Below are positions 24,922-46,153 of a stretch of 64,000 nt of DNA, piece after piece. The DNA is from a virus. The stretch's first letter is position 1; every line of letters begins with the position of its first letter. Location of the stretch: positions 32,001-96,000 of IMG/VR virus record IMGVR_UViG_3300006737_000017; one strand, 5' to 3'. Under the pieces are notes generated by a model. It was not told the origin of the DNA and searched no databases. It saw only the letters and a program-made list of their open reading frames with translations. Position numbers and translations under genes: made by a program.

Positions 24922-24928
24922 GAACCTA

Positions 24929-25014
24929 TGACAAATTGTCACTAAAAAACTTTGAAAAGTGGACAAATTGTCACCTAAAAAATTTGGATAAGTCGATTTT
25001 TTTTCTTATATTTA
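24929..25014 (+). promoter_or_regulatory. Two (T/G)GACAAATTGTCA palindromes followed by an early-type promoter
   Basis: Palindromes at 24929 and 24961; TTTG at 24983, TATATTTA at 25007. Confidence 0.8.
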
Positions 25015-25049
25015 TATATAAATAATTAACTAACACAAAAAACACTACT

Positions 25050-25340
25050 ATGAGTAAAAAAGAATTAGGTAACACTGGAAAAATTAAAAAAGAAAGTAAC
25101 TACAAAAAAGCTGATTACATTTATAGCTATAAGCTAGGTAAGGATTATCAGATAGAATTAGTAAATAATATGATTTACTATAAAAAGAAAGATGCCTTTG
25201 GTGCTTTCAATCTAGTTAAAGCTGAGGAAACTCCGACTAAGATGTACGGACATTCGGAATTAAAAGAATTAGCTTTAGATATCTCAAAGAAAATGGGACT
25301 TAAATTAACAGCTGCTATCACAGGTTCAGTAATATCTTAA
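25050..25340 (+). CDS. Early hypothetical protein, paralog of the N-terminal domain of 9111..10937
   Basis: YQIELV..IYYKK..LVKA..G..ELKELA..I.K. Confidence 0.65.
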   Translation: MSKKELGNTGKIKKESNYKKADYIYSYKLGKDYQIELVNNMIYYKKKDAFGAFNLVKAEETPTKMYGHSELKELALDISKKMGLKLTAAITGSVIS

Positions 25341-25341
25341 T

Positions 25342-25418
25342 TGTTAATAACTTACTCGAAATTGTTAATAACTTCGAGTCAAAATATTTGGATAAGTCAT
25401 AATTTATTCTTATATTTA
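25342..25418 (+). promoter_or_regulatory. Twin TGTTAATAAC boxes plus an early-type promoter
   Basis: Boxes at 25342 and 25363; TTTG at 25387. Confidence 0.8.
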
Positions 25419-25453
25419 TATATAAATAATAACAATCACTAACACTACACTAT

Positions 25454-27768: not shown

Positions 27769-28131
27769 ATGGCAATAAATGAAAGAAAAAGACAACAGTT
27801 TTGGGAAATGCAATCCTTTATCAAAAAGAAAATAAAGGGTGCTCATACCAAAGTCAATTCAGATGGGTCAGTATATGTTGCTGATGCAAATGGAAAGAAT
27901 ACTATAGGAACAAAATATCCATCTCTAGCTCTAGCACCAGATGTTTTTACAGCTTGGAAAAATGCTTATGTAGTTGAACATTGGAATCGACAAGAAGCTA
28001 GAAGTATTAGAGGTATCCAATGTGATATTAGAAACAATACTGTTCAAGGTGGAGAGGAATTGTCAAAAGCTATACACGAATATTTCGAAGAAGATATTGA
28101 AATGTATGACGAAGAAAACGTAAATGAGTAG
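27769..28131 (+). CDS. Hypothetical protein
   Basis: ORF track, operon spacing. Confidence 0.6.
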   Translation: MAINERKRQQFWEMQSFIKKKIKGAHTKVNSDGSVYVADANGKNTIGTKYPSLALAPDVFTAWKNAYVVEHWNRQEARSIRGIQCDIRNNTVQGGEELSKAIHEYFEEDIEMYDEENVNE

Positions 28132-28741
28132 TATACAAGGACCAAAAGGAAAAGTAACCAAGCATCATCAGAGAGGTAGACCGCTAAGGTATCTACTTCA
28201 ATCTGAGATAGAAGAAGCTATGGAGAATACTAAATCTAATTTAGCTGCTTCTAAATGGTGCAAGGTTTCCTTTACTACTTATAAAAAATATGCCTCAAGC
28301 TATTACGATTCAGATGGTAAATCTTTATATGAAAAACATAAGAATCAAACTGGTAGAGGTATTTCTCAGTTTAGAGAAGGTCACCATGGGAATCAGTACC
28401 CATTAGAAGATATCTGTGAAGGTAAACATCCAGAATATCCAACGTGGAAATTGCTAAAGAGGTTGATCAAGCACAAAGTAAAAGATGAATGCTGCGAGAT
28501 TTGTGGTTTTGCTGAAAAACGGAAAGGAGATGGTAAAGTTCCATTGATACTTGGTTTTGACGATAGAAACAAATTAAACAGGAAACTAAAGAATTTAATA
28601 GTAATGTGCTATAATTGTTTCTTCATTCATCAGGGTAAATTAGCTGGAGGGAAGGATGCTCCATACCCACGTAAAAATAGCACTTTACTTAAAAAAGATA
28701 ATCTTGACGAACAAGATTACGAAATGTTACGAAATTTATAA
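28124..28741 (+). CDS. HTH plus degenerate HNH-like zinc-binding protein
   Basis: HTH-like SNLAASKWCKVSFTTYKKY; CEICG...N....NL..MCYNC. Confidence 0.55.
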   Translation: MSSIQGPKGKVTKHHQRGRPLRYLLQSEIEEAMENTKSNLAASKWCKVSFTTYKKYASSYYDSDGKSLYEKHKNQTGRGISQFREGHHGNQYPLEDICEGKHPEYPTWKLLKRLIKHKVKDECCEICGFAEKRKGDGKVPLILGFDDRNKLNRKLKNLIVMCYNCFFIHQGKLAGGKDAPYPRKNSTLLKKDNLDEQDYEMLRNL

Positions 28742-28755
28742 AAAAGGAAAAAGTT

Positions 28756-28974
28756 ATGTATTATTTAGGAAGAGTAGAATTTACAACAGTAGTCGACACA
28801 AAAGGTGGTGGCACTAAAGAAAAGAAAAACAGAGTACAATATTTAGTTGATGCAATGTCTTGCACAGAAGCTGAATCAAGAATAGTTGAAAATCTAAAAG
28901 ATTCAGTTGATGACTATGAAATAAAGGGTGTACAACAATCAAAAATAATTGAAGTATTTGAGCATAAAGCTTAA
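28756..28974 (+). CDS. DUF4494-like protein
   Basis: YLVDAMSCTEAE..I, then SKIIEVF; the family is typical of Bacteroidota. Confidence 0.7.
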   Translation: MYYLGRVEFTTVVDTKGGGTKEKKNRVQYLVDAMSCTEAESRIVENLKDSVDDYEIKGVQQSKIIEVFEHKA

Positions 28975-29085
28975 CTTAACTGATATTTATCTACGAGGAT
29001 CCGGGGAAAAGATAATACTTACGCGACCTTAAATTAAGTATACTGGATGGGTATTTAATTTTAACAAACATTTTAGGAGTTTATT

Positions 29086-29502
29086 ATGACAAGATTACAT
29101 TTTCACGAGCGGTTGTTTCCAACCGACCTTCTGTTCAAAAATTTCTTTGAAACAGATTCAAATTTTCAATCTCACGTAGACAACAAACCTAACTATCCTT
29201 GTGATTTATTCACAACTGATGAAGGCTTGGGTATTGAGATTGCAGCTGTTGGTTTAGATAAAAAAGATATCAAAATCGAAACAGCAGAAAATCAAATTAA
29301 AATTAGTTACGAAAGGACTGACGATGAACAATCAGTTGATTATATTCATAGAGGCATTGCTAGAAGATCTTTTAACTTAGGGTGGAAGATTTCTCCAAAG
29401 TTCAACTTAAATAGAGTTGATGCCAAAATGGATAAAGGGTTACTTACAATCTTCATTCCAATTGCTGATGAAGCTAAACCAAAAGCAATTACAATAGGAT
29501 AA
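29086..29502 (+). CDS. Small heat-shock protein (Hsp20/IbpA-like)
   Basis: YP..L, EIAAVG, YIHRGIARRSF, AKMDKGLLTI.IP. Confidence 0.92.
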   Translation: MTRLHFHERLFPTDLLFKNFFETDSNFQSHVDNKPNYPCDLFTTDEGLGIEIAAVGLDKKDIKIETAENQIKISYERTDDEQSVDYIHRGIARRSFNLGWKISPKFNLNRVDAKMDKGLLTIFIPIADEAKPKAITIG

Positions 29503-29550
29503 TTTTATCCGAATACCCATCCGGTATTAGTTATATAAAATAAAAAGCAT

Positions 29551-29904
29551 ATGAAAAACTTATTGAATACAATTGTCTGGGGAATACTAAAAATATCGCT
29601 AATAGTAGTTAGTGCATTCATTTTAGTAATAATCATCAATTCTTTAATCAGAGGAGATAAACTAGATCCCAATGACCCAAGACCACCTGGACCCTTATAC
29701 AATTACTGGCATCCAAGTTGGGATGAAAACAATCCAAGAACTATAATCCCAAATGGAGAAGGCACAATAGAATACGAAGATGGAACAATAGATTCTGTTA
29801 GATGGAGTGAAGATGAGGTTACAAGAGGAGTATCACCAGACCCGATTCAAACTGATGAATGGCAAATGTGGATAACAGGAGATGGAGATACGATATGGGA
29901 ATAG
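29551..29904 (+). CDS. Membrane-anchored hypothetical protein
   Basis: N-terminal TM. Confidence 0.6.
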   Translation: MKNLLNTIVWGILKISLIVVSAFILVIIINSLIRGDKLDPNDPRPPGPLYNYWHPSWDENNPRTIIPNGEGTIEYEDGTIDSVRWSEDEVTRGVSPDPIQTDEWQMWITGDGDTIWE

Positions 29905-29982
29905 AAGCAAAAGTTATAGCATTAACAATTATTGTTATCTTAGCTATGATAGTTTACGAATTAATAAAAGCAAAAATAACAA

Positions 29983-30432
29983 ATGATCAATAGTACTAAA
30001 GAGTGGGATTGGATGGATAACAATAAGCAGAAGAGATTAGATAATACTTATCTGAAAATGGCAGAATGCTGGGCTGAATTATCTCATAGTAAAAGGTCTA
30101 AGGTTGGAGCATTAATAGTAAAAGATCAGATGATTATATCAGATGGATATAATGGAACACCTACTGGCTTTGAAAATAGTTGCGAAATAGATGGTGTTAC
30201 AAAATGGGAAGTTCTTCACGCTGAAGCTAATGCCATATTGAAATGTGCAAAGCATGGTACATCATTAAAAGGTGGTACTTTATACTTAACAATGTCTCCA
30301 TGTAAAGATTGTGCTAAATTAATTTTTCAATCGGGGATAATTAGAGTAGTTTACAGAACTGAATATAGAGATAAAGAGGGTATAACATTCTTAAAAAGAT
30401 CTGGTGTAGATATATCAAAGTTTTCTGCATAA
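29983..30432 (+). CDS. dCMP deaminase
   Basis: GYNG, HAEANA, SPCKDC. Confidence 0.92.
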   Translation: MINSTKEWDWMDNNKQKRLDNTYLKMAECWAELSHSKRSKVGALIVKDQMIISDGYNGTPTGFENSCEIDGVTKWEVLHAEANAILKCAKHGTSLKGGTLYLTMSPCKDCAKLIFQSGIIRVVYRTEYRDKEGITFLKRSGVDISKFSA

Positions 30433-30434
30433 AA

Positions 30435-30466
30435 TTTGGATAAGTCGTAAATTTTTGTTATATTTA
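30435..30466 (+). promoter_or_regulatory. Early-type promoter
   Basis: TTTGGATAAGTC-N-TATATTTA. Confidence 0.75.
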
Positions 30467-30764
30467 TACATAAAGAAAAACAAATTATGCTAGAATATTT
30501 TTTCATAGGGATAATGACAATGTGGTTAATAGAATGGGGTTCACCATATCCATGGACAATGTTTGAAAGAGCATTGATAATTACCTTATGGCCAGTTGCA
30601 TTTATGATTATGTTGCATGCATTATATAAAAGATTCGAAGATAACAATGAGGGAAATTGATAAAGTAAGATTTGCAATATTGAAAGCTAAGATAGAAAAA
30701 AAGCCACCAATAATAATCCAAAAATTACAACAGAGATTAGATAAACTATCAAGGGATAAAAAAG

Positions 30765-31004
30765 ATGGGAATGTATGAAGATCTATTCTATGAGATTACA
30801 GAATCTATAGAATCAAAAGGTTTAAGAAAAGAGTTTGATGCTCAACTCAACAAAATGAGCGAACAAGCAAAACACCGTTACAAAGAAACCAGAGATAGAT
30901 GGGATTATGCCTATCAAAAAGTTATAAAAAAATATGAAAACGAAAGAAATCAAAAAATTCAAAAGACGCAGAGCACTAATCTGCAAGATGGTAAGAAAAA
31001 GTAA
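30765..31004 (+). CDS. Hypothetical protein
   Basis: ORF track. Confidence 0.55.
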   Translation: MGMYEDLFYEITESIESKGLRKEFDAQLNKMSEQAKHRYKETRDRWDYAYQKVIKKYENERNQKIQKTQSTNLQDGKKK

Positions 31005-32203: not shown

Positions 32204-32391
32204 ACTGGAAATCAACAGACAATACATACACGTCTATAAAGAAACAAAACACTATACACAAAGCTAGAATGGCAAATGAATTACGTGCTAATGGCATATC
32301 CGTATCAGGTATTGCCACAATGCTGAATTTAAGCAAATCACGTATCTATGAGTATCTACGCAAGGACTTTATCGCACCGAATAACGGGTAA
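32197..32391 (+). CDS. Small HTH protein
   Basis: GISVSGIATMLNLSKSRIYEYL. Confidence 0.7.
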   Translation: MVNWKSTDNTYTSIKKQNTIHKARMANELRANGISVSGIATMLNLSKSRIYEYLRKDFIAPNNG

Positions 32392-32621
32392 TTAGTAATA
32401 CACACAGGCTGCATGAATACATCCACACTATATAACAGTATACCTATATATGAATATTCAAATAGCTAAAATAATTTGCTAAATAATAAAATAATGCTGG
32501 CCCGTGTGTCCCGAGGATGTACTTTTTTTGCCGGCTAATGAACTTTTACACTGGGCCCTTAGGTACGTCTCACCTACCCTATTACTGCAATAGCACAGGC
32601 TTAAACGGGCTTAAAACCGCA

Positions 32622-32696
32622 TGACAAATTGTCTCTTTATTTTGCCAAATTGTCACCTAAAAAATTTGGATATGTCAATTTTTTTTCTTATATTTA
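32622..32696 (+). promoter_or_regulatory. Two TG(A/C)CAAATTGTC palindromes plus an early-type promoter
   Basis: Palindromes at 32622 and 32643; TTTG at 32665. Confidence 0.8.
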
Positions 32697-32723
32697 TATA
32701 TAACAAATTCAAACTCAAGATCT

Positions 32724-32900: not shown

Positions 32901-32971
32901 TAACTTTACTGATATTGTTAATAACTAACCGCTAAATAATTTGGATAAGTCGCAAAAATGTCTTATATTTA
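32895..32971 (+). promoter_or_regulatory. Twin TGTTAATAAC boxes plus an early-type promoter
   Basis: Boxes at 32895 and 32916; TTTG at 32940. Confidence 0.8.
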
Positions 32972-33000
32972 TATATAATTAATAACTAACACTACACTAC

Positions 33001-34197
33001 ATGAAGTACATTCTAAAAATTTCAACTGTTACTAAAACAGAAATCAAACTGGAATCAGGTAAAAATACCTTTACATTACCTGCTAGTCCAGAAGCTTTGA
33101 AAAAAGCTAAAGCTGCTATGAGGAAAGGAACCAACATTGCTCTTACTATAGATGGTGAGATGCTAAGCTTTGGTACCTCATCTGCTAAGACTAACGTTAC
33201 TAATGTTCCATCAGGACTAGAGAAATATTGGGACCAATACACTCCTCCTGTTAACAAGGAACATGCAGAGATGATGTCATTCATACACAATGACTCTGTT
33301 AAACTAAGACCTGAAATGCTAATGCTACCAGATCTACAATGGAAGTATCTCGTACGTTCTGTTATTAGAGGTAAAAACATTATGATGACCGGACCAGCTG
33401 GTTCAGGTAAAACAATGGCTGCTAAGGCTGTCGCTAATGCACTAGATAGACCAGAGTTCTATTTCAATCTAGGAGCTACTCAAGATCCAAGATCTACATT
33501 AGTTGGTAATACTCACTTCTCTAAAGATTCAGGGACTTTCTTCTCAGAGAGCTCTTTCGTTAAAGCAATCCAAACAGAGGATTCAATCATTCTATTAGAC
33601 GAACTATCAAGAGCTCACCCTGAAGCTTGGAATATCCTAATGACAGTATTAGACCCAGGTCAAAGATACTTAAGACTGGATGAAGCAGATAACTCACCAA
33701 CCATAAAGGTTGCCAAGGGAGTTACATTTATAGCTACTGCTAATATAGGTAATGAATATACATCTACAAGAGTAATGGACAGAGCATTACTAGATAGATT
33801 CACTATTATTGAAATGGGACTTCTCTCACAAGAAAAAGAGGAAGCATTACTTTGTATGCTATACCCAGAAGCAGATGTTACACTAATGAAAAATATTTCA
33901 GCAATAGTTTCTGCTACCAGAGATGAAATGAAAACAGAAGTACCAAGGATTTCAACATCAGTCTCTACAAGAACCTCAATAGAGTTCGCCTCTCTTGCTC
34001 ACGATGGCTTTTCACTCGAAGAAGCTGCTGAGGTTACAGTATATCCCTTATACGATGAAGCTGGAGGCTTAGATTCTGAAAGAACGTTTATAAAACAGCT
34101 AGTTCAGAAGTTTATACCAGCTAACACTGATGAAAACCTATTTAACACTGAAAAAGACGAATTATTCACTGAAGAAGATGTTAACAGTGCTTCATAA
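33001..34197 (+). CDS. MoxR-family AAA+ ATPase (CbbQ/NirQ/CobS-like)
   Basis: GPAGSGKT, ILLDELSR, FIATAN, DRALLDRF, STR. Confidence 0.9.
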   Translation: MKYILKISTVTKTEIKLESGKNTFTLPASPEALKKAKAAMRKGTNIALTIDGEMLSFGTSSAKTNVTNVPSGLEKYWDQYTPPVNKEHAEMMSFIHNDSVKLRPEMLMLPDLQWKYLVRSVIRGKNIMMTGPAGSGKTMAAKAVANALDRPEFYFNLGATQDPRSTLVGNTHFSKDSGTFFSESSFVKAIQTEDSIILLDELSRAHPEAWNILMTVLDPGQRYLRLDEADNSPTIKVAKGVTFIATANIGNEYTSTRVMDRALLDRFTIIEMGLLSQEKEEALLCMLYPEADVTLMKNISAIVSATRDEMKTEVPRISTSVSTRTSIEFASLAHDGFSLEEAAEVTVYPLYDEAGGLDSERTFIKQLVQKFIPANTDENLFNTEKDELFTEEDVNSAS

Positions 34198-34220
34198 CAA
34201 CAAAATCATGTAGTGGTGAT

Positions 34221-34287
34221 TAAGGTCCAAACTCGCTTAAAAATGCCCACCAATAGTTTATTGTAAGCAGCGAGTTTGGACTCCTTA
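34221..34287 (+). other. Strong hairpin downstream of the MoxR gene
   Basis: GTCCAAACTCGCT (34225-37) pairs with AGCGAGTTTGGAC (34269-81), 13 bp perfect. Confidence 0.7.
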
Positions 34288-34392
34288 GGGAGGGGGGTTA
34301 GGCCGTTTATATGCCGAGCTCAATTTTTTTACCCGGGGTTTTTCTTTTACCCTACTATAAATTAAATTTAATTAAATAATATACTAAATACT

Positions 34393-35234: not shown

Positions 35235-35315
35235 ATGAAACAAGAACCAATAGACGTTACACCTGTTCTATACATAGCTATTATGGCTATTGTATTTGCA
35301 TTAGGTATTTTATAG
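35235..35315 (+). CDS. 26-aa hydrophobic peptide
   Basis: MKQEPIDVTPVLYIAIMAIVFALGIL after TATATTTAT. Confidence 0.4.
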   Translation: MKQEPIDVTPVLYIAIMAIVFALGIL

Positions 35316-35316
35316 T

Positions 35317-35413
35317 AGACAAATTGTCATATGCAATTGTTAATAACTTTTGCAAAAGTGGACAAATTGTCACCTGTTTTATTTGGATAAGTCGTATTTT
35401 TTGATTATATTTA
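35317..35413 (+). promoter_or_regulatory. GACAAATTGTCA x2, a TGTTAATAAC box and an early-type promoter
   Basis: Palindromes at 35317 and 35360; box at 35338; TTTG at 35382. Confidence 0.8.
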
Positions 35414-35455
35414 TATATAAATAATTAACTAATCAAAACTTAAAAACTACTACGT

Positions 35456-36217: not shown

Positions 36218-36278
36218 TAACTTATTAATAAGTTTCTCTCTTTTTATTTGGATATGTCAAATAAATTTCTTATATTTA
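36212..36278 (+). promoter_or_regulatory. TGTTAATAAC box plus an early-type promoter
   Basis: Box at 36212; TTTG at 36247. Confidence 0.75.
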
Positions 36279-36301
36279 ACTATAATTAAAAAATCACTAC
36301 T

Positions 36302-36638: not shown

Positions 36639-36712
36639 GGACCAGTAGCTCAGCTGGATAGAGCATTAGCCTTCTAAGCTAACGGTCGAAGGTTCGAATC
36701 CTTCCTGGTTCA
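36639..36712 (+). tRNA. tRNA-Arg (anticodon UCU)
   Basis: Acceptor GGACCAG/CTGGTTC-A; D arm GCTC..GAGC; anticodon arm TTAGC-CTTCTAA-GCTAA; T loop TTCGAAT; CCA not encoded. Confidence 0.95.
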
Positions 36713-36738
36713 CTAACAATAAAATTAAAATTACTACT

Positions 36739-38049: not shown

Positions 38050-38109
38050 TAACTTTTTCAAAATAGTTCCCAAAAAATTTCGATAAGTCGATTTTTTTGA
38101 TTATATTTA
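38044..38109 (+). promoter_or_regulatory. TGTTAATAAC box plus an early-type promoter (TTTCGATAAGTC variant)
   Basis: Box at 38044; promoter at 38078. Confidence 0.7.
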
Positions 38110-38134
38110 TATATAAATACTTAACTAATAATAA

Positions 38135-39364: not shown

Positions 39365-39375
39365 TTCTCTAAAAA

Positions 39376-39407
39376 TTTGGATATGTCGAAAATTTTAATT
39401 ATATTAG
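39376..39407 (+). promoter_or_regulatory. Early-type promoter
   Basis: TTTGGATATGTC-N-TATATTAG. Confidence 0.7.
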
Positions 39408-39569
39408 CATATAATTTATTATTTAATAATAACTCATACACTAACATAATTAAATAAAAACAATTTATTTATTATTATATAATTCAAAGAATTACACACC
39501 CACAAGGTGTATTAAAAAAGGGATAAGCCGAAACCCTAAATAGTAGGCAATATTAAATATTTTTACAAC

Positions 39570-40190: not shown

Positions 40191-40494
40191 TACTGATATT
40201 CAGAAAACTGTTTTAGATATATTAAATTCTGTTGACAATGTAGATCCTAAAGATATTTCTAAAGTAACTGTTGAAAAGTTTGATAAGATACTTTCCTTAA
40301 TTTCAGCAAACATTAAAATGTCCGCTGGTAATAGAAACTTTGATCAGAATGAATTTAGAATAGATAAGTCTACAGTTTTTAATTATAAGATGAAATATTC
40401 AACAACTGGAAATATTAGTAAAGAGGATATACAATCGTTAAATTTGTTTTATCAGAAACATAAAAATTTAACAAAAATCTTACTTGCTATTTGA
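40153..40494 (+). CDS. Hypothetical protein
   Basis: ORF track. Confidence 0.55.
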   Translation: MAKRKKQQVQTLNTDIQKTVLDILNSVDNVDPKDISKVTVEKFDKILSLISANIKMSAGNRNFDQNEFRIDKSTVFNYKMKYSTTGNISKEDIQSLNLFYQKHKNLTKILLAI

Positions 40495-40504
40495 TATTTA
40501 TAAT

Positions 40505-40730
40505 TGAATCGCTATTACTTATATTAGCTGCATTTATGGACCCGGGTTCGATTCCCGGCATCTCCACTAAAAGATTTACACGATATGGGGATGACTGGCT
40601 TTGACAGAATGATAAGGGTATAAGGAAGATTCACTGCAACAACTGGCACACAAGTTGAAATGGCGATGGCTGCCTAATTAGGCCCCCTGACCCAACGGTT
40701 GAAGAAGCATACCGTCTAAGCTTCGGAGGT
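40505..40730 (+). ncRNA. ssrA: Circularly permuted (two-piece) tmRNA; tag (A)GTQVEMAMAA
   Basis: Acceptor piece with T arm CCGGG-TTCGATT-CCCGG and CATCTCC-A (to 40566) precedes the 5' piece GGGGATGACTGGCTTTGAC (from 40587); G3-U70 pair; tag ORF 40645-40677. Confidence 0.9.
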
Positions 40731-40761
40731 AAGAGGATAATTAAATAAAAGGAGTAACAAT

Positions 40762-41145
40762 ATGACACCAGAAGAATACGGCAAAGTAGAAGAATTCATG
40801 GAAGGTTATATGTTAGATTTAACTTACGATATAGTAACTAAGAAGATTGCTTTATCTGAATTAGTTAATACTGACGAAGAAGTTATATTGAGTTACGACC
40901 CATTTGCAATAGGAGAAATAGATCAGGCTTGGTTATTACAAGACTTAATAGACTATTTTGTTACCACAGAAGAATATGAAAAATGTGCAAAACTATTGAA
41001 GATGAAAATACAAGTCGAAAAAGGTACGCTAGATTTATCTGATAGGATATATTTAACAGATGAAGATTTCTTGAATGAAGAACAAGATATGATTATTCAA
41101 TCCTTAATCGATGAATTATTAAAAAATAATTTTAACAAAAATTAG
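40762..41145 (+). CDS. UVR-motif-like acidic protein
   Basis: YFVTTEEYEKCAKLL. Confidence 0.55.
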   Translation: MTPEEYGKVEEFMEGYMLDLTYDIVTKKIALSELVNTDEEVILSYDPFAIGEIDQAWLLQDLIDYFVTTEEYEKCAKLLKMKIQVEKGTLDLSDRIYLTDEDFLNEEQDMIIQSLIDELLKNNFNKN

Positions 41146-42934: not shown

Positions 42935-42938
42935 ATTA

Positions 42939-42970
42939 TTTGGATAAGTCGAAAAAATTTATTATATTGT
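42939..42970 (+). promoter_or_regulatory. Early-type promoter
   Basis: TTTGGATAAGTC-N-TATATTGT. Confidence 0.75.
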
Positions 42971-43006
42971 ATACTAATAGAAAACAAAACTTATTAGGAG
43001 ATTACA

Positions 43007-45567: not shown

Positions 45568-45670
45568 TTATAATAAAGAAAAAGGTTATATAAAAGGTTT
45601 CTAAAAAAGGTTATGGTATTGAACTCCGAAAGCATGTTAATTTTATTAAGAAAATAACAAGGAGAATTAT

Positions 45671-46078
45671 ATGAAAAATTTGATTTTAACAATGATGCTA
45701 GTATGCGGCATGTTCGCAGCAAATGCACAAACAAGTGGTGACTGGTACGTAGGTACTGGAGATGTAGCAAATACAGCATGGACTGATTGGTCTGTGTCAC
45801 CTACAATTGGATATGGTGTTATGGACAACCTAATGGTTGGTTGCTCAGTATCTCAAGCAGATTCAACTGTTGATATGGATATTGATTTTCACGCAAGATA
45901 TTTTGTAAAAGGATATTTTGCTTATTTAGCAACAGACGGGCTATCTACGGATGGTATGTCTATTGGGGCAGGTAAGATGTTTACCTTACGTAATAATATT
46001 TACGTTGACCCTAAAGTGGTTTACAACACAGGAGAAAAAACTACAAACCTTACATTAGGGTTTGGGTTTAGATTCTAA
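45671..46078 (+). CDS. Small outer-membrane beta-barrel protein
   Basis: Signal peptide (AANA/Q); amphipathic strands; C-terminal LGFGFRF beta signal. Confidence 0.8.
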   Translation: MKNLILTMMLVCGMFAANAQTSGDWYVGTGDVANTAWTDWSVSPTIGYGVMDNLMVGCSVSQADSTVDMDIDFHARYFVKGYFAYLATDGLSTDGMSIGAGKMFTLRNNIYVDPKVVYNTGEKTTNLTLGFGFRF

Positions 46079-46153
46079 TTAACCCATAATGGGTCAACAT
46101 GCTTTCGATGCAATTTTGCAACAGAATACTTATTAAAACAATAGGAGAAAACA

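Follow-up and report, generated by a model that had tools for sequence, protein, structure and literature searches.

The sequences that flank 16S and 23S rRNA pair with each other over hundreds of nucleotides, forming processing stems that loop out the RNA between them and whose cleavage by RNase III has been shown. In the ROSE and fourU thermometers of small heat shock genes, local hairpins in the leader hide the Shine-Dalgarno sequence and melt with heat. The locus described here, a phage hsp20 gene whose message is predicted to be closed by a helix between its leader and the stretch past its stop codon, differs from both. The rRNA stems flank noncoding RNAs in cellular operons, whereas the hsp20 message is protein coding and of phage origin, and its cleavage is hypothetical; unlike the thermometers, the hsp20 helix joins distant sequences, leaves the Shine-Dalgarno sequence free, and by prediction remains stable to 65°C.

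The hsp20 helix would work like the closures of the hbs, icaR, and hok messages but belongs to none of them and is unrelated to them in sequence, and its evolutionary support far exceeds the experimental. A 2021 review, in the part drawn on, names only hld/RNAIII, icaR, and hbs as intramolecular pairings between the untranslated regions (UTRs) at the 5' and 3' ends of bacterial messages (PMC7821165). In Bacillus subtilis, a 14-bp 5'/3'-UTR pairing shields the mRNA of hbs against RNase Y (Braun, Durand and Condon 2017, PMC5737220). Like hsp20, hbs is a small gene with a short long-range UTR pairing; hbs is highly expressed, and its pairing modulates ribonuclease cleavage of the leader. The hbs 3' UTR is reported not to be conserved even in close relatives (PMC7821165), whereas the hsp20 helix has been kept by compensatory change in dozens of diverged phages. 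In Staphylococcus aureus icaR, as predicted for hsp20, UTR pairing produces a double-stranded region, which in icaR is cut by RNase III (PMC7821165), and the targets of RNase III in B. subtilis are likewise long-range intramolecular helices (PMC11780869). icaR also has an anti-Shine-Dalgarno sequence, UCCCC, in the 3' UTR that blocks initiation; at hsp20, the 3' arm pairs with 29040-29056 and not with AGGAG, leaving the ribosome-binding site (RBS) untouched.

In hok/Sok of plasmid R1, pairing of the tac and fbi ends stabilizes the full-length message, and the long-range stem has a competitor in a 5' structure (PMC9841398). Closure of the full-length RNA through its own 5' and 3' ends and a competing 5' structure both have putative counterparts at hsp20. 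The closed form of hok also conceals the mok Shine-Dalgarno sequence until 3' trimming opens it, which allows translation and antisense binding. At hsp20, by contrast, the Shine-Dalgarno sequence is not part of the helix, the protein made is a chaperone and not a toxin, there is no known antisense RNA, and the sequence is unrelated. No paper on a closing helix or flanking repeats of phage hsp20 was found in a full-text search of the literature.

The hsp20 locus and its genomic setting

The window, that is, the whole stretch of 64,000 nucleotides that was analyzed, corresponds to bases 32001 to 96000 of a 138,299-base IMG/VR virus record representing an uncultured marine phage, with an estimated completeness of 80%. 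Its G+C content is approximately 31%, and nearly all ORFs in it lie on the + strand. As a baseplate-wedge gene is encoded in the window, the phage can be taken to be a myovirus, and a type IX secretion sorting domain identified with Pfam at the end of one ORF suggests a Bacteroidota host. The features of hsp20, and those of a second gene with a similar arrangement, are listed in Table 1. The next ORF starts 49 nt past the hsp20 stop codon with no evident terminator, and the hsp20 message may therefore be polycistronic.

Table 1. Positions in the window of features at hsp20 and at the OMP-like gene
Feature	Position	Strand	Remarks
Promoter-like region of hsp20, putative	28957..28990	+	TTTG at 28957-28960; box GATATTTAT at 28982-28990; spacing of 22 nt
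Transcription start, probable	28993..28995	+	Placed from the position of the box
5'-terminal leader hairpin GAGG..CCTT, window clade	28995..29030	+	In MFE fold and in consensus fold of five leaders
Local AU-rich hairpin with 5' arm at apex	29031..29061	+	Inverted repeat I14; in consensus fold of isolated leaders
5' arm of closing helix	29040..29056	+	ATACTGGATGGGTATT at 29040-29055; paired in MFE and centroid folds; mean pair probability 0.97 at 37°C
Shine-Dalgarno sequence AGGAG of hsp20	29075..29079	+	Outside the helix, 19 nt past the 5' arm
hsp20 ORF (138 amino acids)	29086..29502	+	Pfam HSP20, 3.1e-12; PHROG 432 Hsp20, 2.9e-17
Stop-codon hairpin GGATA..TATCC	29497..29510	+	Abuts the 3' arm; in MFE fold
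3' arm of closing helix	29511..29527	+	AATACCCATCCGGTAT at 29512-29527; just past the stop codon; paired in MFE and centroid folds
5' arm at OMP-like gene (ORF 45671-46078)	45627..45638	+	CGAAAGCATGTT, perfect 12-mer
3' arm at OMP-like gene	46096..46107	+	Complement of CGAAAGCATGTT

Two genes upstream of hsp20 is an HNH endonuclease gene (28124-28741; PHROG, 9.1e-9). The 72-amino-acid ORF directly after it, in the region 27769-28974, matches only the C-terminal half of DUF4494 (positions 74 to 139 of 139), and the ORF upstream of the HNH gene gave no Pfam match; the DUF4494-type gene upstream of hsp20 may have been split by a homing endonuclease.

Several noncoding features were also identified elsewhere in the window. 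A permuted tmRNA gene lies on the + strand at 40517-40677 (Rfam tmRNA_permuted, 66.9 bits against a gathering score of 47); ARAGORN places it at 40474-40768 with the tag peptide GTQVEMAMAA, and the gene lies in a 267-nt gap free of ORFs. A tRNA-Arg gene with anticodon TCT is present at 36639-36713 (+). Two ORF-free stretches, at 32204-32723 (520 nt) and 34198-34392 (195 nt), are locally G+C rich and hairpin prone and adjoin an AAA+ (MoxR-like) gene (33001-34197).

Complementary arms and local structures in the window

Read on the + strand, ATACTGGATGGGTATT and AATACCCATCCGGTAT form 15 Watson-Crick pairs and one U-G pair. The initial annotation, made from this DNA alone, had described complementary arms enclosing the RBS and the whole hsp20 ORF; the sequence is as described there, and comparison with relatives supports the pairing. 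The arm pair ranks first (I1) among the inverted repeats of the window, and when up to three mismatches are allowed the 16-mer occurs at four places in the window, where 0.81 would be expected; two of the four are close copies, namely the hsp20 arms. Folding of the predicted 557-nt message (28994-29550) gave the closing helix in both the MFE and centroid structures (z = -3.98). The helix is 17 to 21 bp long in the window phage, and its extended duplex is 21 bp.

The hairpin over the hsp20 stop codon, also claimed earlier, is present and was found in all five window-clade loci looked at, but it is missing from other clades, whose Hsp20 C termini differ. The letters of a proposed leader hairpin, ATACTTA/TAAGTAT, do exist, but this hairpin is found neither in the MFE and centroid folds of the message nor in the consensus fold of five leaders. 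In the GAGG..CCTT hairpin one pair changes from G-U to G-C and one is changed on both sides, a thin record from five leaders only. The pairs of the AU-rich hairpin at 29031-29061 are invariant in the five window-clade leaders and so are without covariation; among relatives, at least six local pairs spanning the center of the arm were found in 34 of 48 distinct loci, with a mean of 9.1 against 7.3 in shuffles, a modest excess. An Rfam search of 28700-29800 with E values of up to 10 returned five chance-level matches only, all far under the gathering scores.

The match between the arms was compared with chance expectation in the same genome by means of a flank score, which takes 100 nt upstream of a gene and 90 nt downstream of it, rates the best helix without gaps that the two can form, and was calculated for 158 + strand genes. 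With a score of 38, hsp20 is at the top of these 158 genes; 7 of 24,649 mismatched flank pairs reached this value, equivalent to 0.045 expected per genome, and the observed score was reached by none of 200 shuffles of the hsp20 3' flank. On the window genome alone, the hsp20 arm match is borderline and no more than suggestive. The idea that every gene is clamped in this way was rejected, as the mean score of the 158 genes with their own flanks was 18.61, compared with 18.58 for mismatched flanks.

Flanking complementarity in related phages

Using an Hsp20 profile, 413 relatives were identified in IMG/VR, the best 80 of which were used. Together with the window and three further loci (L014, L016, and L018), these made up 84 rows, 13 of which were dropped for a short flank or the lack of a start codon, leaving 71 loci. 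For each locus, the 150 nt upstream were tested for a helix with the 110 nt past the stop codon, with 200 shuffles as reference. In this set, derived from the best 80 of the 413 relatives, a flank helix was found at a shuffle P value of ≤0.05 in 66 of 71 loci and at the 1% limit in 54 of 71. The 5' arm starts between 43 and 95 nt ahead of the ATG (median, 68) and the 3' arm between -1 and 32 nt past the stop codon (median, 9). When neighboring pairs were allowed, the extended duplex reached a median of approximately 26 bp and at least 20 bp in 43 of 48 distinct loci, lengths that include some pairs added by the program by chance.

A total of 51 distinct arm pairs were identified, many of unrelated sequence; their cores include ACTGCGGGT, AAGTGTACTGAGTA, AATACAGGCAGGTT, GACCCTAGGGC, ACGGGCACCCC, and ATAATTTGAATGTAACTTAGG, and every one of them is matched by its own complement in the downstream flank. 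The mean score of a leader with its own 3' flank was 33.8, compared with 20.2 with the flanks of other loci, and a control in which the 3' flank was reversed without complementing gave a mean of 21.6 against 33.2. In the nearest diverged relative (L007/L022, with 71% protein identity), the U-G pair of the window is replaced by C-G. Covariation across related phages, which the initial annotation had named as a check, is therefore present, with compensatory change in many relatives and over the 51 arm pairs.

Four of the five loci that lack an adjacent helix (L014, L071, L085, and L091) have their 3' arm 227 to 248 nt further downstream, behind an inserted ORF for a DUF2061 membrane protein (3.5e-23; at 3398-3604 in L014), so that their helix encloses two genes. 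As the 3' arm sits behind DUF2061 in these phages, the arms follow the end of the transcription unit and not that of the gene.

Outside IMG/VR, no relative of the Hsp20 clade was found among 185,579 prokaryote species represented by one genome each (51 pattern matches, none confirmed) or, by tblastn with Hsp20 at 1e-8, in GenBank phage records. A blastn search of the same phage records with 28000-31000 returned a single weak match, which lies outside hsp20.

Covariation and probable pairing on the sense strand

A multiple-sequence alignment of 19 diverged loci (A2) was made using MAFFT. From this alignment RNAalifold predicts the closing helix unaided, pairing columns 44 to 56 with columns 592 to 605. 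Of the cells in this helix, 87.9% are paired, compared with 78.4% in shuffles, and the covariation score is 0.406, compared with 0.234; neither value was reached in any of 500 shuffles. Changes on both sides were found in 7 of the 12 pairs, although counts of this kind from related sequences are not independent events. Sliding the partner by one to three columns lowered the paired cells to between 24 and 55%, a control that is somewhat flattering because the structure was derived from the same 19 sequences. A further alignment (A3), of the window clade with the CTGCGGG clade, was excluded from the pair counts, as the window arm is out of register with the others.

The same alignment contains a second local leader hairpin, GCTGAT..ACAGC, in columns 101 to 118 (L052-L095), approximately 20 nt ahead of the start codon. 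Compensatory changes to GAGTAG..CACTC and GGGTAG..CACCC were seen in three to four of the 19 loci, and the window clade is without this hairpin and has a plain AGGAG site in its place.

Departures from Watson-Crick pairing were counted in 41 distinct helices scoring at least 26, out of 46 distinct pairs, with G-U and A-C penalized alike. These helices contain 556 Watson-Crick pairs, 20 G-U pairs, 2 A-C pairs, and 7 other mismatches. If both kinds were equally likely, at least 20 G-U among 22 would arise by chance with a probability of approximately 6e-5, the events being not fully independent. The excess of G-U over A-C indicates pairing on the sense-strand RNA, as do the 3' arms placed behind DUF2061 and the orientation of hsp20, which in the 71 loci is never inverted relative to both neighbors. 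The earlier reading of the single G-U difference in the window as a sign of selection at the RNA level generalizes to the relatives at a ratio of 20:2. It is therefore very probable, judging from these sequence comparisons, that the arms pair in the sense-strand hsp20 transcript, where leader and post-stop stretch would form a helix enclosing the RBS and the ORF.

A second gene with complementary flanks

To the claim that the same design flanks the OMP-like gene, the window genome alone lends nothing beyond chance: the flanks of this gene score 30, a level seen twice against 1.07 expected. The claim holds through comparison with relatives only. In 77 OMP-like loci, arms of 8 to 14 bp occupy a constant place, approximately 40 to 60 nt ahead of the ATG and 11 to 20 nt past the stop codon, and these arms comprise at least nine different sequences, with complementarity kept in orthologues.

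The window genome was also compared with four related phage records; 105 of its 162 genes had at least two orthologues. Across these 162 genes and five genomes, complementary flanks were kept in two genes only, hsp20 (Fisher P = 3.3e-9, with four different arm sequences in the five genomes) and the OMP-like gene (Fisher P = 9.3e-7 over four genomes). A genome-wide scan for ORF-bracketing repeats, which had been suggested earlier, thus retained these two genes but gave no sign of a general habit. A third comparative match, at 25050-25340, was rejected because the palindromic promoter box TATTTATATATAAATA occurs in both flanks and no gene-specific helix is involved.

Promoter-like box and transcript ends

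The words ATATTTAT and TATATTTAT are among the most intergenic-enriched of the genome and form part of a recurrent TTTGGATAAGTCG..TTATATTTATATATAA motif, which looks like a promoter of the TTTG/TAnnTTT type and which we take to resemble Bacteroidota promoters. Of 48 distinct relatives, 36 have a box with the pattern ATAT[T/G]TAT upstream of the 5' arm, at a median distance of 15 nt from the ungapped arm (range, 1 to 54). Given this box just ahead of the arm and the extended duplex, the helix would in most relatives begin only a few bases from the likely 5' end. In the window clade the 5' arm is approximately 45 nt from the proposed start and not at the very end, the separate hairpin at 28995-29030 coming first.

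Of the 2.5 kb compared with contigs from marine metatranscriptomes (four runs from three studies), only 28943-29400 is covered, which takes in the leader and the first two-thirds of the hsp20 ORF, and a divergent contig piece also matches 30103-30178. One contig (run X3) starts at 28995, and another, from a relative in a different study (run X4), starts approximately 32 nt ahead of 29024 with ACGAGG, while a third (run X1) extends upstream through the proposed start to 28943. These contigs stop short of the 3' arm, to which no weight can be given, as contigs can neither rank genes nor show transcript ends, and their starts are a weak hint of a transcription start near 28993-28995. From their position between the promoter-like box and the next ORF, both arms would be carried on the same transcript.

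A related intergenic module recurs in the window. It consists of TTTGGATA(A/T)GTC followed after approximately 9 nt by TTATATTTATATATAA, and ahead of it there is often the palindrome GACAAATTGTC, or else TTGTTAATAAC, in one or two copies. Sites were identified at 24922-25049, 25341-25453, 32600-32723, 32901-33000, 35300-35455, 36218-36301, 38050-38130, 39365-39420, and 42935-43006, and the module looks like one promoter class with an operator.

Proposed function and alternative explanations

The helix would tie together both ends of a short, self-contained hsp20 message, leaving neither free for the end-dependent ribonucleases of the host. RNase III could in addition release the hsp20 unit from read-through transcripts while its two ends remain paired; the duplex is approximately two helical turns long, enough for RNase III in most relatives (21 bp in the window and, some chance pairs included, at least 20 bp in most distinct loci). 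As the Shine-Dalgarno sequence is not part of the helix, the helix would in either case determine how long the message lasts rather than the start of translation. The local AU-rich hairpin, whose apex holds the G-rich 5' arm, probably arises first, during transcription, and would be displaced once the 3' arm has been made; it would compete with the 3' arm or present the 5' arm to it. That the helix functions by tying and shielding the ends, possibly with a site for RNase III, is a proposal to which we give an even chance of being correct. The whole, an RNA helix with an end-shielding or end-defining function, is the best explanation at hand and, on balance, a probable one. Among the functions listed in the initial annotation, stability or processing appears the most plausible.

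The same RNA helix could instead be a negative element, an RNase III substrate through which the message is destroyed or silenced, with Hsp20 made only when the helix is opened. The length of the extended duplex in 43 of 48 loci would suit such a role, and there is precedent in icaR, where 5'/3' pairing results in cleavage by RNase III and in decay (PMC7821165), and in the long-range helices targeted by RNase III in B. subtilis (PMC11780869). Unlike in icaR, the Shine-Dalgarno sequence is left uncovered by the helix, and high expression is the better fit for a gene that has its own promoter-like box and has been kept in over 400 phage contigs. We consider silencing unlikely.

Small heat shock genes are classic targets of RNA thermometers, and a conformational switch would have the local 5' hairpin and the long-range helix alternate to control translation, in response to temperature, with hok-like timing, or through the terminating ribosome. 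Isolated leaders are predicted to form a local hairpin containing the 5' arm, hairpins with the arm at the apex recur (34 of 48 loci, with the excess over shuffles given above), and the 3' arm, at a median of 9 nt past the stop codon, would be within reach of a terminating ribosome. The excess is small, and the local hairpin is without covariation in the five window-clade leaders. Neither structure takes in the Shine-Dalgarno sequence, whose modeled accessibility (-80 to +40) is ordinary, ranking 19 to 27 among 56 genes; the rise in accessibility between 10 and 37°C ranks 11 of 56 in the same model. Thermosensing by the helix itself, another function suggested earlier, is unsupported, as the modeled pair probability is 0.97 at 10°C and still 0.91 at 65°C, and the closing helix, so modeled, is not itself a thermometer. 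A switch of any of these kinds seems to us decidedly unlikely.

A DNA-level origin of the arms, which would then bound an invertible or mobile hsp20 cassette as its inverted repeats or be two copies of a protein-binding site, is highly improbable. Inverted repeats around a small accessory gene whose neighbors differ between phages are what such a cassette would display, and an HNH endonuclease gene is found two genes upstream. The strand bias of 20 G-U against 2 A-C is not expected of double-stranded DNA, and the arms, in contrast to sites that one protein reads, are free to vary in sequence yet remain complementary. There is no locus among the 71 in which hsp20 is inverted relative to both neighbors: both are on the same strand in 65, the upstream neighbor is on the opposite strand in 3, and the upstream call is absent in 3. 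No recombinase was seen adjoining hsp20. Least probable of all is a split intrinsic terminator, in which the helix and a U-run would act together with the upstream half at the 5' end of the message: at least four T's directly follow the 3' arm in 15 of 48 distinct loci and a promoter-like box for the next gene follows in many relatives, but 33 of 48 have no T-run, the window included (none after 29527), and termination by a hairpin with a 450-nt loop is not known.

Implications

Closure of a whole gene in a loop is a rarely documented arrangement. The case also matters for annotation, as RNA structure, and not the scar of a mobile element, can be what a short inverted repeat on either side of a small phage gene represents. 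Dozens of arm sequences, in a clade with more than 400 IMG/VR matches and with a second gene arranged alike, amount to natural compensatory "mutants" and provide a test bed for the effect of message closure on decay, processing, and translation in bacteria and phages.

As two unrelated genes share the design and the helix is stretched over DUF2061 in some relatives, it can also be imagined, quite unlikely as we hold this to be, that "panhandle" messages are a general way in which this lineage insulates chosen accessory genes, the helix being a portable RNA module. If this were true, a single helix would shield the 5' end and also form and protect the 3' end, and a gene so equipped could be inserted anywhere in a genome read through on one strand and still yield a message that is discrete and long-lived, which RNase III might excise or which might even be joined end to end.
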